From a virus (lineage: Duplodnaviria > Heunggongvirae > Uroviricota > Caudoviricetes): a DNA stretch of 11,395 nucleotides. Position numbers and translations under genes: made by a program. Positions 1 to 11,395 of the stretch are shown here, one piece after another. The first letter of the stretch is position 1, and each line of letters begins with the position of its first letter. Where the stretch lies: positions 1 through 11,395 of IMG/VR virus record IMGVR_UViG_2585427777_000024, one strand, 5' to 3'. A model generated the notes under the pieces. The model did not search any database and was not told where the DNA came from. It saw only the letters and a program-made list of their open reading frames with translations.

Positions 1-1236
1 CTACGATAACCGCGCATTCAACATGGCTATCTGTTCGTCGTTCATGTCATCAATCCACATACCGTAAATTTCATACACCATCTGCGCAGTTTCATGCCCC
101 ATTTGGCTGGCTATAAATGCCGGGTTCGCTCCTGCCGTCAACAGCCAGCAGGCAAAAGTATGCCGCGTATGGTACGGATTACGGCGGCGAATACCAGCAC
201 GTTTTACTGCTGCATTCCACCTTGCCCCCAAACTGCTTACCGAGTAATAAGGTTTTTGTTTTCCGTTACACACCCTGGGCATGAAAACAAAATGCAGTTT
301 TTGCTTTTCGGTTCTGCCGTACTCCCGATGATAAAAGGTGATTTCGCTTTTGCGATGATGCCCGGTCAGTTTGTATTGCTCCTTCAGTGCTTCAAGAGCA
401 GGCTGCAGTAGTGTTACTGTTCGGATCCCGGCATTTGTTTTTGGGGGACCGAACATATCAAGTATCGTCAGGTTTCTTCTGACATTCACTATTCCCTTTT
501 CGAGATCCACATCCTCCCACGCCAGAGCTGCCAGTTCCCCGTGACGAAGTCCTGAGTAAACGGCAAATTTCCACAAGTTCTGGCTCTGTCCTTTTTCACT
601 TTCCATTAATGCATTGAATTCTGTTTTAGATAACGGATCAGGCTTTATTCTGTTTCGCTGTAATTTTTTTACTCCTTCAAATGGTTTGGTTGATATAAAT
701 CCCGACTGATACGCAAAACGCAACAGCGAACAGAGCAGGGCGATATAGTTATCAACTGTGCGCACGGTTCTTCCTTTTTTGTTGGATCTTGGATTATCCA
801 GGTAAAGCGTTTCTCCATGCAGCAGTTCATTCCGGTAGTTTAAGATATCGCTATAACGAATATGTGATATCGGGGTACTTTCACAAATTATTATTCTGAG
901 TGTTTTTAATTGTGATTTCGTTTTCTTCATTGTGTTTGTTGTTAACTCTGTCTCTTTAATTTTTGTCCAGATATCACAAAGCTCTCCGAACGTTTTTATG
1001 ACTCTCGTTGTCACCATTTTTGCCCCAGTGCTGGACTGGGGAAAACGTCTTAAATACTCAAATTCACCGGAGTTTATTTCATGAACTATCAGCGATCTTA
1101 AATTTCCGGCCTTTTTAATATTACTGTTTGTAATCTCCCAGCCTTTTAATGTTTCCCGACATCGTTTTCCTCGAAACATGAACCAGATGCGAATGTATCT
1201 ACCTCTAATCTCGACACCTGTTGGTAATTTAGACAT
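1..1236 (-). CDS. intR: Prophage tyrosine integrase (Rac IntR-type), 411 aa
   Basis: Full-length ORF; C-terminal HTRHTFA...YEIYGMW is a tyrosine-recombinase box II / catalytic Tyr region. Start is separated by 1 nt from the xis stop (TGAtATG). Sequence recalled as Rac IntR. Confidence 0.93.
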   Translation of the reverse strand: MSKLPTGVEIRGRYIRIWFMFRGKRCRETLKGWEITNSNIKKAGNLRSLIVHEINSGEFEYLRRFPQSSTGAKMVTTRVIKTFGELCDIWTKIKETELTTNTMKKTKSQLKTLRIIICESTPISHIRYSDILNYRNELLHGETLYLDNPRSNKKGRTVRTVDNYIALLCSLLRFAYQSGFISTKPFEGVKKLQRNRIKPDPLSKTEFNALMESEKGQSQNLWKFAVYSGLRHGELAALAWEDVDLEKGIVNVRRNLTILDMFGPPKTNAGIRTVTLLQPALEALKEQYKLTGHHRKSEITFYHREYGRTEKQKLHFVFMPRVCNGKQKPYYSVSSLGARWNAAVKRAGIRRRNPYHTRHTFACWLLTAGANPAFIASQMGHETAQMVYEIYGMWIDDMNDEQIAMLNARLS

Positions 1237-8795: not shown

Positions 8796-9653
8796 ATGCT
8801 GTTTGTGCTTATTCTAAGCCACCGGGCAGCATCATACGGGGCAATTATGGCCGCATTACCATACATGCAACTGTACATAGCTGATTACCTGGCTGACACC
8901 ATGCATTTGTCAGCAGAGGAGCATGGTGCGTATTTGTTGCTGATGTTCAATTACTGGCAAACAGGAAAGCCAATACCTAAAAACAGGCTGGCAAAAATTG
9001 CCCGTCTGACTAACGAGCGATGGGCTGATGTTGAACCATCCTTGCAGGAGTTTTTTTGCGATAACGGCGAGGAATGGGCGCATCTTCGGATTGAGGAAGA
9101 TCTGGCATCAGTCAGGGAAAAATTAACCAAAAAATCAGCCGCAGGAAAAGCATCTGTTCAGGCCAGAAGAAGCAGAAAGGAAGCAGATGTTCAAACAAAA
9201 CAAGAGAGAAATTTAACAGGTGTTCAAACAGATGTTGAAGTGGTGTTTGAACATGATGTCAACACAAAGGCAACTAATAAAGATACAGATAAAGATCTAA
9301 AAACAGATCCCCCCCTAAATCCCCCCCGGGGGAATCGAGGTGTCAAAAAGTTTGACCCTCTGGATATTGCTTTGCCGAACTGGATTTCTGTCTCGCTTTG
9401 GCGTGAGTGGGTTGAATTTCGCCAGGCATTGCGAAAACCGATTCGAACGGAGCAGGGCGCTAACGGGGCGATACGGGAGCTGGAAAAATTCCGCCAGCAG
9501 GGTTTTTCACCTGAGCAGGTGATTCGACACAGCATCGCCAATGAATACCAGGGCTTGTTCGCGCCGAAAGGTGTTCGACCTGAGACGTTACTCCGACAGG
9601 TTAACACCGTCTCGTTACCGGATAGTGCGATCCCGCCAGGCTTCAGGGGGTAA
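8796..9653 (+). CDS. ydaU: YdaU replication-initiator (lambda O-like) protein, 285 aa
   Basis: Full ORF; a possible alternative start is at 8847 (ACGGGG 5 nt upstream). Contains internal iteron-like repeats and a Pro-rich linker, as in lambda O. Confidence 0.8.
   Translation: MLFVLILSHRAASYGAIMAALPYMQLYIADYLADTMHLSAEEHGAYLLLMFNYWQTGKPIPKNRLAKIARLTNERWADVEPSLQEFFCDNGEEWAHLRIEEDLASVREKLTKKSAAGKASVQARRSRKEADVQTKQERNLTGVQTDVEVVFEHDVNTKATNKDTDKDLKTDPPLNPPRGNRGVKKFDPLDIALPNWISVSLWREWVEFRQALRKPIRTEQGANGAIRELEKFRQQGFSPEQVIRHSIANEYQGLFAPKGVRPETLLRQVNTVSLPDSAIPPGFRG
9184..9335. repeat. Candidate prophage replication origin: iteron-like TGTTCAAACA repeats, an AT-rich stretch, then C7-TAAAT-C7-G5 homopolymer tracts
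   Basis: TGTTCAAACA at 9188-9197 and 9221-9230, inverted copy TGTTTGAACA at 9244-9253, partial CAGATGTTGAA at 9229-9239. AT-rich 9262-9300. C and G runs at 9309-9332. All lie inside ydaU. Confidence 0.45.
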
Positions 9654-9659
9654 CTGACC

Positions 9660-10622
9660 ATGAAAAATATTGCGACAGGCGACGTTCTTGAACGTATCCG
9701 CAGACTGGCCCCGTCACATGTAACCGCGCCATTCAAGACGGTAGCGGAGTGGCGCGAGTGGCAACTTTCCGAAGGCCAGAAACGTTGTGAGGAGATCAAC
9801 CGTCAGAATCGTCAGTTGCGGGTGGAAAAAATTCTGAATCGCTCTGGCATCCAGCCATTGCACCGCAAATGCTCGTTTTCGAATTACCAGGTGCAGAACG
9901 AAGCGCAGCGATACGCGTTGAGTCAGGCGAAATCCATCGCTGATGAACTGATGACCGGGTGTACAAATTTTGCGTTCAGCGGAAAACCTGGTACCGGGAA
10001 GAACCACTTAGCGGCAGCTACTCGCGGCCTTAATAAGAAAAACTCTAAGCCGACAATAATCAATAAAGATTACAGTGTAGATACACTACTATCAGAGCTA
10101 TTTTTGAATGGCGCACACATGGAGCAACCCAACGTACACAACGTTTCTGAGGGAAACATGAAGTTCTATGATGAATGCCATGCTGGATTAATCAGACCAA
10201 TACCCGCTCCAATAGGCGCGTCATACGATGAAGAGATCACAATTAATTCTCCAGATTGGCAAAAGCTCGCGTGTGTAGCTTTACGCCGCTATCAGTCGAA
10301 GGAATGTCATGACGGAATGCAATGGGATACAACCGATCATGGTTGGACTGATGTAATCGCGTATCCATTCGTCGAAGAAATACAATCAATGGATAATAGT
10401 GGTTATCGACAATGTTTAGTTGGGCTGGTCACAATAAACAATTCAAATGCAAATTCTCCGTACCTATCTACCGTTTGGATACATCCATTTTATCGCAGGA
10501 GAGGGTTATTAAGTAAGTTATGGCCAAAATTACAAGAGTTATATGGAAGTAACTTCGAAATTGAGCGACCTAATGAAAATATGAAAGCATTTCTGAAAAG
10601 TGCGAAACACGCAGATTACTAA
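9660..10622 (+). CDS. Chimeric ORF, 320 aa: N-terminal ~120 aa of a DnaC/IstB-like helicase loader (YdaV) through the P-loop GKPGTGKN-HLAAA, fused in frame to ~200 aa of unrelated AT-rich sequence
   Basis: N-terminus MKNIATGDVLERIRRLAPSH... recalled as Rac YdaV. After HLAAA (about 10017-10022) the protein has no Walker B or sensor motifs. Hand-counted 60-bp samples give ~52% GC before the junction and ~37% after. Confidence 0.7.
   Translation: MKNIATGDVLERIRRLAPSHVTAPFKTVAEWREWQLSEGQKRCEEINRQNRQLRVEKILNRSGIQPLHRKCSFSNYQVQNEAQRYALSQAKSIADELMTGCTNFAFSGKPGTGKNHLAAATRGLNKKNSKPTIINKDYSVDTLLSELFLNGAHMEQPNVHNVSEGNMKFYDECHAGLIRPIPAPIGASYDEEITINSPDWQKLACVALRRYQSKECHDGMQWDTTDHGWTDVIAYPFVEEIQSMDNSGYRQCLVGLVTINNSNANSPYLSTVWIHPFYRRRGLLSKLWPKLQELYGSNFEIERPNENMKAFLKSAKHADY
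10158..10622 (+). CDS. Possible independent gene inside the chimeric ORF: 154-aa GNAT-like acetyltransferase candidate
   Basis: Internal ATG at 10158 preceded by GAGGGAAAC. Motif YLSTVWIHPFYRRRGLLSKL resembles GNAT motif A (beta4-alpha3, R-x-x-G-x-G/A-like), but the region after the motif is shorter than typical. Assignment is by eye only. Confidence 0.35.
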   Translation: MKFYDECHAGLIRPIPAPIGASYDEEITINSPDWQKLACVALRRYQSKECHDGMQWDTTDHGWTDVIAYPFVEEIQSMDNSGYRQCLVGLVTINNSNANSPYLSTVWIHPFYRRRGLLSKLWPKLQELYGSNFEIERPNENMKAFLKSAKHADY

Positions 10623-10733
10623 TTTATGAATCAGTCTGTGGAGTTAGAGTTGGTGTGAACAAGTAGGGTAAGAGCCTCAACGTGATGCTATGCCGACCTG
10701 CTCCCTGAGAATTCACACAGAAGGCTGCTAGCA

Positions 10734-11024
10734 ATGTCTGCAGATCGCTCAAAGCGGACTAGAAGGTTAGCTTGCGTCGGACTTGGCGTATTTAAAGAAG
10801 TGCTGGTGGTGACTGGTTGTTGTGTTCCATTTCTACAGAACAAAATCACAGAAACTATACCCAATAGTTGTATCTCATCAATGATGAGACAGCCTCATAT
10901 TTATCAGGACTGGTGTACGTCCAATACAGGAGGTTGTCGTGCTGGTTCTCAAATGTGCGCTGGCTATTGCAGCTGTAATGGCAATTTATTGTCTTGCTGT
11001 TGTTCTTATGGATCGCTTTTCTGA
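10734..11024 (+). CDS. Hypothetical 96-aa ORF with a Cys/Gly/Ser-rich C-terminus (12 Cys)
   Basis: The only long open frame in 10623-11035 (open from 10686). Weak SD. The Cys-rich tail overlaps a better-supported +1-frame hydrophobic peptide and has T-rich first codon positions, so at least the 3' part may be non-coding. Confidence 0.25.
   Translation: MSADRSKRTRRLACVGLGVFKEVLVVTGCCVPFLQNKITETIPNSCISSMMRQPHIYQDWCTSNTGGCRAGSQMCAGYCSCNGNLLSCCCSYGSLF
10873..10889. promoter_or_regulatory. 17-bp perfect palindrome TCTCATCA-A-TGATGAGA
   Basis: Seen directly. It lies ~40 bp upstream of the AGGAGG SD at 10928-10933. The 1-nt centre argues for a dimeric protein-binding site rather than an RNA hairpin. 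Confidence 0.4.
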
Positions 11025-11028
11025 TTGA
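10939..11028 (+). CDS. Candidate 29-aa hydrophobic (single-TM-like) peptide, GTG start: (M)LVLKCALAIAAVMAIYCLAVVLMDRFSD
   Basis: Consensus SD AGGAGG (10928-10933), 5-nt spacer, GTG at 10939. First codon positions are G-rich (13 of 29), unlike the overlapping frame. It ends 8 bp before the hok promoter -35. Confidence 0.35.
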   Translation: MLVLKCALAIAAVMAIYCLAVVLMDRFSD

Positions 11029-11035
11029 TTTTATA

Positions 11036-11064
11036 TTGGCGAGGTAACGGGAGTTAAGTAGAAT
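11036..11064 (+). promoter_or_regulatory. Candidate hok/mok mRNA promoter: -35 TTGGCG, 17-bp spacer, -10 TAGAAT
   Basis: Hexamers at 11036-11041 and 11059-11064. The predicted start (~11071) precedes GCTTGAGGCT, which resembles the 5' end of plasmid R1 hok mRNA as recalled. Confidence 0.4.
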
Positions 11065-11124
11065 GGCTGCGGGTGCTTGAGGCTATCTGTCTCAGGCATG
11101 AACACCAAAGGCAGATAGAGAAAA

Positions 11125-11226
11125 GCCCCAGTTAACATTACGCGTCCTGCAAGACGCTTAACATTAATCTGAGGCTCAATCTATGAACGGCAAATCTAGG
11201 TTAGCCTCTTACGTGCCGAAAGGCAA
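11125..11226 (-). ncRNA. Candidate Sok-like antisense RNA with its promoter (-35 TTGCCT at 11226-11221, -10 TAACCT at 11203-11198), antisense to the mok translation-initiation region
   Basis: Inferred from hok/sok architecture and weak promoter hexamers with 17-nt spacing. The RNA 3' end was not located, and no clear terminator was found. Confidence 0.3.
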
Positions 11227-11395
11227 GGAGAAGCAGGCTATGAAGCAGCAAAAGGCGATGTTAATCGCCCTGATCGTCATCTGTTTAACCGTCATAGTGA
11301 CGGCACTGGTAACGAGGAAAGACCTCTGCGAGGTACGAATCCGAACCGGCCAGACGGAGGTCGCTGTCTTCACAGCTTACGAACCTGAGGAGTAA
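11183..11395 (+). CDS. Mok-like reading frame, 70 aa, in-frame N-terminal extension of Hok
   Basis: ATG at 11183 preceded by GAGGCT with an 8-nt spacer. The 70-aa frame is co-terminal with hok. Confidence 0.5.
   Translation: MNGKSRLASYVPKGKEKQAMKQQKAMLIALIVICLTVIVTALVTRKDLCEVRIRTGQTEVAVFTAYEPEE
11240..11395 (+). CDS. hokD: Hok/Gef-family type I toxin, 51 aa, sequence of HokD (RelF)
   Basis: MKQQKAMLIALIVICLTVIVTALVTRKDLCEVRIRTGQTEVAVFTAYEPEE matches recalled HokD/RelF. AAGGAG lies 9 nt upstream. The window ends at its stop codon. Confidence 0.9.
   Translation: MKQQKAMLIALIVICLTVIVTALVTRKDLCEVRIRTGQTEVAVFTAYEPEE

Follow-up and report, generated by a model that had tools for sequence, protein, structure and literature searches.

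The window, by which we mean the whole stretch of 11,395 nucleotides analyzed here, represents the left portion of a cryptic prophage of the Rac type in Escherichia coli, adjoining ttcA. It matches NCBI contig JOST01000149.1 (assembly GCA_000713855.1) at every base, and the chimeric open reading frame (ORF) that it contains is therefore present in a real assembly. After intR, the genes follow in the order xis, ralR with the RalA sRNA, recT, recE, racC, ydaE, kilR, and sieB, and then a repressor and cro-like pair, ydaT, ydaU, the chimeric ORF, and sok/hokD (Table 1). The RalA antitoxin sRNA match (Rfam RF02694, 225 bits) and the ralR/lar toxin gene overlap, and the two are the known type I toxin–antitoxin system of Rac. 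At the other end of the window, the hokD (Hok/Gef) toxin ORF shares its 5' end with a match to the sok antisense RNA family (RF01794, 110 bits). The roughly 450 bp that separate the chimeric ORF from sok/hokD are devoid of annotated genes in RefSeq genomes, and the short Cys-rich ORF found there is probably spurious. The ydaS-ydaT region is under RacR repression, and Rac itself is mosaic across 154 genomes, with half of it having been lost in more than half of the strains (PMC5700373).

Table 1. Coordinates of features in the window.
Feature	Position	Strand	Remarks
intR	1-1236	-	First gene of the window
RalA sRNA match and overlapping ralR/lar toxin gene	1557-1735 and 1734-1967	+ and -	
ydaU (DUF1376)	8796-9653	+	Directly upstream of the chimeric ORF; early operon ydaS-ydaT-ydaU-ydaV
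SD-like GGGGG run	9646-9650	+	Overlaps the end of ydaU; read from the sequence; native ydaV ribosome-binding site
ydaU TAA stop	9651-9653	+	Chimeric ORF starts 6 nt after ydaU; native ydaV start context
Chimeric ORF (P0001, 320 aa, ATG start)	9660-10622	+	Annotated by NCBI as 'hypothetical protein'
Equivalent of the DnaC helicase-binding domain, residues ~1-77	9660-9890	+	Intact; phmmer against PDB
Walker A/P-loop GKPGTGKN, residues 108-115	9981-10004	+	Last AAA+ element kept; aligned to DnaC Walker A (K112)
Deletion junction	10019-10020		2-bp TA common to both parents; three-way alignment with E. coli O78 strain 3 (L003) at 11107 and 15621
3' part of the phrog_16994/WP_000354966.1 gene, codons 134-333 and stop	10021-10622	+	Native frame; 100% identical to parent
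SD-like GAGGGA (10149-10154) and internal ATG (10158)	10149-10160	+	ATG is Met180 of the parental protein
Complete divergent GNAT-fold module, residues ~169-320	10164-10619	+	Parental residues ~182-333
Region between chimeric ORF and sok/hokD	10623-11070		
Cys-rich 96-aa ORF	10734-11024	+	Probably spurious
sok antisense RNA match	11071-11245	+	
hokD (Hok/Gef) toxin ORF	11183/11240-11395	+	

The product of the chimeric ORF consists of YdaV residues 1–120 joined to residues 134–333 of WP_000354966.1, a conserved protein of 333 residues whose 1,002-bp gene contributes its 3' 60%. Both halves match their parents perfectly: residues 1–120 are identical at 120 of 120 positions to the 248-residue YdaV of E. 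coli O78 strain 3, and residues 121–320 at 200 of 200 positions to WP_000354966.1, in its native frame. PHROG profiles likewise split the protein cleanly, with the DnaC-like loader profile phrog_50 matching at residues 9–120 and phrog_16994, a profile of unknown function (positions 133–333 of 333), at residues 120–320. The preliminary description, which read the locus as an in-frame chimera of a DnaC-like N-terminus and P-loop with unrelated sequence of lower GC content, is thus borne out by the 100% identity to two different parents, and the alignment with YdaV, which in a non-chimeric protein would extend over all 320 residues, covers residues 1–120 only. The GC contrast that it gave as ~52% versus ~37% is genuine but slightly smaller, at 52.6% for positions 9660–10018 and 39.9% for positions 10019–10622. 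The native start context of the ORF is a good one, and disabling mutations are absent. A scan for promoters and terminators around it stayed at background level (four promoter-like sites found versus 3.1 expected), and PADLOC gave no credible match for the fusion, the 333-residue parent, or the HEPN-like neighbor of the latter.

The N-terminal half is clearly related to the helicase loader DnaC. In phmmer searches against the PDB, residues 2–120 of the fusion align to residues 2–118 of E. coli DnaC (6QEL_G, E=3.5e-32) and residues 2–57 to the isolated N-terminal domain of DnaC (6KZA, E=3e-7). The helicase-binding domain (HBD) of DnaC comprises residues 1–75, and its AAA+ module is marked by Walker A (K112), Walker B (E170), sensor I (N203), the Arg finger (R220), and sensor II (R237) (PMC8213410). 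From the helicase-binding domain, the YdaV-derived part of the fusion continues through the linker and the first AAA+ strand to the P-loop, the last being contained in FSGKPGTGKNHLAAA, which spans residues 106–120. Walker B, sensor I, the Arg finger, and sensor II are absent from the fusion, as judged from the end of the YdaV-derived sequence at residue 120 and from the Pfam and NCBIfam profile matches. The Pfam profile IstB_IS21 (PF01695) matches residues 44–120 only (profile positions 40–111 of 238), with 15.5 bits against a cut-off of 24.1; intact YdaV scores 74 bits. The NCBIfam profile PRK12377 matches over positions 1–126 of 248 with 235.5 bits against a cut-off of 389, and PRK07952 (DnaC) yields 122.7 bits against a cut-off of 357. 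The earlier proposal that the Walker B and sensor motifs are missing and the AAA+ ATPase core destroyed accords with these loader profiles, which stop at the P-loop and score below their cut-offs.

Because all AAA+ elements past Walker A have been lost, the fusion should be unable to act as a helicase-loader ATPase. With four of the five AAA+ motifs absent and scores below the curated cut-offs, its sequence marks it as a chimeric ORF that would not function as a member of the DnaC/IstB loader family, and by analogy with the mutational work on DnaC it should be able neither to hydrolyze ATP nor to oligomerize as a loader (PMC8213410). It resembles the Rac YdaV (the K-12 b1360 family; PRK12377; phrog_50) in its start codon, its ribosome-binding site, its position after ydaU, and its retention of the DnaC-like helicase-binding domain and Walker A, but differs in lacking everything past A120 and in scoring below the curated cut-offs of that family. 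A second point of comparison is the isolated HBD of E. coli DnaC, which in vitro still stimulates unwinding by DnaB and supports reduced loading (PMC8213410). Like this construct, the fusion has an HBD equivalent but no functional ATPase module. However, in the fusion the HBD is trailed by a disrupted stub of the AAA+ module and by a foreign C-terminus; it derives from the phage protein YdaV rather than from DnaC, and its binding to DnaB is putative.

The C-terminal half had been regarded as a new region, but it is actually the native-frame 3' 60% of a conserved 333-residue gene, with a complete GNAT-fold module. Members of this family, which are uncharacterized proteins of prophages and mobile elements, combine an N-terminal α/β domain with a C-terminal divergent GNAT fold. 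The parent belongs to a 90%-identity cluster of 521 sequences found on at least 1,000 contigs, and has homologues down to ~50% identity in Enterobacterales, Aeromonas, Shewanella, and Motilimonas; NCBIfam contains no model for either of the parental accessory proteins. An AlphaFold2 model of the parent, based on an alignment of 22 sequences, has a mean pLDDT of 86.6 and is matched by phage acetyltransferases in a Foldseek comparison with viral models. A profile search of the family against PDB sequences returned nothing even at E≤10; the GNAT fold is thus visible by fold comparison, not by sequence-profile search of the PDB. The score of the GNAT profile PF00583 lies close to its cut-off of 20.7 bits: the entire fusion reaches 19.9 bits, and residues 120–320 alone reach 20.8 bits. 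The region corresponding to motif A (consensus Q/R-x-x-G-x-G/A) reads R-R-R-G-L-L, and the Gly varies within the family (RRGRLL, RGKKLL, RRKGKM). GNAT enzymes bind the acyl-CoA pyrophosphate through main-chain amides, and the sequence of motif A alone is consequently not decisive.

In an exhaustive HMMER search, numerous stand-alone proteins of ~150–180 residues aligned to parental residues ~182–333 only, and since these homologues cover just that part, the GNAT-like module is autonomous elsewhere. Invariant S/W, R, HPF-R, and M positions are common to this module and 15 stand-alone homologues, and all are kept in the fusion. Relative to WP_000354966.1, the fusion has lost the first 133 residues and with them the intact N-terminal α/β domain of ~145 residues; this N-terminal region shows conservation among 22 homologues that reach down to 48% identity. 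The profile match confined to positions 133–333 of phrog_16994, in place of the full-length architecture, identifies the C-terminal half as that of a truncated family member, one that keeps the entire GNAT-fold module in its native frame.

In E. coli O78 strain 3, the intact 333-residue gene is the second of a pair 16 nt apart (L003:14245-16224), in which it is preceded by the gene for WP_014639476.1 (320 residues). The same pair occurs at L001:4625-6604 and L014:4026-5993; the window contains nothing of it but the 3' 60% of the second gene. WP_014639476.1 carries the UniRef name RiboL-PSP-HEPN and shows a weak match to Pfam HEPN_RES_NTD1, and the N-domain of WP_000354966.1 is an AAA+-like α/β domain without a P-loop motif, followed by the divergent GNAT C-domain. 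Conservation of the pair extends from E. coli prophages to a mobile element of Aeromonas, in which SIR2 and cREC_REC genes are its neighbors, and Shewanella has a 331-residue homologue without the partner, adjoining Abi_2 and a reverse transcriptase. PADLOC and NCBIfam hold no model for the HEPN-like/GNAT pair, and a literature search on it found no description. We consider it a candidate defense or toxin–antitoxin module.

The origin of the fusion can be read from E. coli O78 strain 3, in which both parents are collinear on the same strand of one Rac prophage, in the order ydaU, ydaV (248 residues), DUF1627, DUF977, IS2, WP_014639476.1 (320 residues, HEPN-like), and WP_000354966.1. This is likely to be the progenitor order. 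In a three-way alignment, the window equals the O78 strain 3 arrangement minus a single gap of 4,514 bp, or 3,178 bp once the 1,336-bp IS2 insertion is discounted. The match to ydaV extends through position 10020 and that to the 333-residue gene begins at 10019, leaving the dinucleotide TA as the only microhomology; the break, previously placed at about 10017–10022, is accordingly mapped to 10019/10020. In the loader, it falls just past the P-loop of the AAA+ core. In the 333-residue protein, it falls between residues 133 and 134, at the start of a predicted strand (132–139) located between strands 124–129 and 142–146, and thus, according to the model, inside a folded region and not in a linker. 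Read in its other two frames, the right part has 13 and 18 stops, so an out-of-frame join would have given a short truncated ydaV. For a random junction between genes on the same strand, the in-frame outcome is a one-in-three event and thus no signal.

Three other origins were considered and rejected. Exchange between mosaic phages by homologous recombination is ruled out by the collinear progenitor and the mere 2 bp of homology, an IS-mediated adjacent deletion by the absence of any IS end at the junction, and the fusion as the ancestral state by the conservation of both parents as full-length families in many genera.

The junction is narrowly distributed. A megablast search of 5,426 complete E. 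coli genomes found no place that spans it, even though the right-hand parent is present in 209 of these genomes and at least 80% of the left segment (ydaU and the 5' part of ydaV) in 714, with a best identity of 99.9%; position 10019 of the window is the exact start of all matches to the right-hand part. An exact search of genome_contigs with 48 nt across the junction gave no match either, which is weakly informative as this collection holds one genome per species. At the protein level, a database of 5.8 billion clusters contains the whole 320-residue architecture only as P0001 (nine contigs on record) and P0002 (a G63D variant, one contig), and all other matches cover 38–67% of the query and come from one parent family or the other. 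A widespread 320-residue family, which would have argued for something other than a chimera, is therefore not what is seen.

Approximately 15 near-identical contigs from isolate assemblies, ENA metagenomes, and Logan run assemblies carry P0001, all in the same Rac context and all with an intact ORF. Seven places that were compared with the window differ from it by 0, 1, or 9 SNPs over up to 11.4 kb, and by none within the fusion ORF. Given that these contigs are the only carriers and that the complete genomes lack the junction, it marks one recent, near-clonal lineage. The place with nine SNPs (L005) has seven of them clustered at 11176–11196 in the sok/hok region and two elsewhere in the 11.4 kb, which suggests patch recombination with another hok/sok locus or a mixing of reads. 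All of the longer contigs that carry the fusion stop ~10–225 bp past hokD (L004:11737-11960), and this suggests that a repeat, either an IS or a duplicated prophage segment, lies immediately downstream of hokD in the fusion lineage.

Truncation of ydaV by deletion is a recurrent theme in Rac. In strain LR-28, codon ~186 of ydaV is joined to the 3' end of DUF1627, and everything between xis and ydaU is missing as well. P0034 and P0047 join ydaV at codon ~136 to DUF1627, at different points of the latter, P0040 joins codon 137 to DUF977, and in P0036 ydaV runs into unrelated sequence. These remnants resemble the window fusion in that a 5' end of ydaV has been fused by deletion to downstream prophage sequence, sometimes in frame with DUF1627 or DUF977. 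However, their breakpoints lie at codons ~135–137 or ~186 rather than 120 and their partners differ, and the window fusion is the only one seen to reach the GNAT-like gene. The 3' deletions of ydaV in other strains are independent of the window junction. The four database chimeras (P0034, P0047, P0040, and P0036) break ydaV within a stretch of three codons (GQTVIV/V/T) at codons ~135–138 (L003:11150-11162), in the part that is deleted in the window, and this stretch could be a hot spot for deletion or recombination; no long shared homology was found at these breakpoints, the best match being 9 nt. Insertion sequences are also found in the region, with an IS1 inside the 333-residue gene in SF-173 and an IS2 beside the region of that gene in O78 strain 3. 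Three further proteins (P0039, P0062, and P0033), each from a single ENA metagenome contig, have the YdaV N-terminus (residues 1 to ~125–165) joined to a β-lactamase-family, a SAICAR-synthetase-like, and a third, unrelated C-terminus, respectively. They are probably chimeric assemblies rather than biology.

The chimeric ORF is very probably a scar of illegitimate recombination, that is, a by-product of prophage decay that is in frame by chance. This reading is favored because the parents are collinear, the microhomology is limited to 2 bp, folded domains are cut in both parents, and the junction is absent from all 5,426 complete genomes. The ancestor would have been a Rac-like prophage with the order ydaU-ydaV-DUF1627-DUF977-HEPN-like gene-333-residue gene, in which a single microhomology-mediated deletion of ~3.2 kb, or of 4.5 kb if IS2 was already present, removed the 3' half of ydaV from codon 121, DUF1627, DUF977, the HEPN-like gene, and the first 133 codons of the 333-residue gene. 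The ends would have been joined by chance in the native frame of the downstream gene, such that the start codon and ribosome-binding site of ydaV may now drive a read-through product of 320 residues. The ~45 and 48 residues of truncated domains that flank the junction are unlikely to fold, and the fusion gene is presumably transcribed, with its operon, only upon derepression of the RacR-repressed early operon. We infer that the fusion is selectively neutral, a property beyond the reach of sequence statistics because its copies lack divergence. Two observations count against a scar, namely that both retained ends are autonomous elsewhere, as the isolated DnaC HBD and the stand-alone GNAT-like proteins of ~160 residues, and that a fusion with a good start and no disabling mutation has been sampled repeatedly, from isolates and metagenomes in NCBI, ENA, and Logan.

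The preliminary description had left open whether the locus is a recombination scar or a genuine fusion linking a helicase-binding domain to an effector. The evidence described above supports the former, and nothing found speaks positively for the latter, in which selection would have favored a protein whose YdaV domain tethers an active GNAT-type acyltransferase to the helicase or replisome, or that acts as a dominant binder of DnaB. Structurally, such a protein is conceivable, since both end modules are autonomous elsewhere: the HBD equivalent is intact and homologous to DnaC 1–75, the isolated DnaC HBD acts on DnaB (PMC8213410), the GNAT-like module is whole, including all residues invariant in its stand-alone homologues, and the ORF is intact in each contig that carries it. 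However, we hold a selected fusion to be very improbable: one near-clonal lineage carries the one junction seen, the cuts within folded domains on both sides leave ~90 residues of orphan fragments, the microhomology and the collinear progenitor point to a random deletion, and the copies offer no divergence from which selection could be read. Moreover, the binding of DnaB by Rac YdaV and the catalytic activity of the GNAT-like module are both putative, and motif A is degenerate.

It is similarly improbable that the relevant product is a stand-alone GNAT-like protein of ~154 residues, started at the internal ATG and freed of the N-domain and of the HEPN-like neighbor. Although this ATG has an SD-like GAGGGA 4 nt upstream and natural stand-alone homologues (157–182 residues) begin within a few residues of the same site, both elements are already internal to the intact 333-residue gene and were not created by the deletion. 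Beyond close relatives, the Met is not conserved in the 333-residue family, where the column holds W, D, N, E, H, Q, G, and I, and no promoter-like signal stands out. More generally, we give little credence to the view that the chimera is made upon derepression of the RacR-controlled early operon and is active, be it as a DnaB-binding domain that carries a GNAT acyltransferase to the replisome or as a GNAT-like module released from the pseudo-ATPase-like domain and the HEPN-like partner; if true, it would capture domain shuffling in the act of giving rise to a new effector encoded by a prophage. An assembly artefact is the least credible explanation of all. Other YdaV 'fusions', such as the β-lactamase-like P0039 and the SAICAR-synthetase-like P0062, may indeed be misassemblies of single metagenome contigs, but the junction studied here is identical in ~15 contigs, including independent isolate assemblies (GCA_000713855.1, GCA_014978025.1, and GCA_048639465.1), ENA metagenomes, and Logan assemblies, and always lies in the same ttcA-intR...ydaU context.

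With a deletion scar as the preferred reading, the chimeric ORF is best filed as a deletion-derived chimeric pseudogene, which is new only as an instance, the outcome being well known in the decay of cryptic prophages. For annotation, this means that the 'hypothetical protein' is better read as a deletion-derived fusion pseudogene of ydaV and a phrog_16994 gene and not a novel replication protein, and the junction itself is usable as a marker for one E. coli lineage. The locus also illustrates that prophage decay yields in-frame chimeras that keep autonomous modules and constitute raw material for domain shuffling, although there is no sign of such use here. The more interesting biology lies outside the window, in the uncharacterized pair of a HEPN-like protein and a pseudo-ATPase/GNAT protein that is found in defense-island-like contexts.
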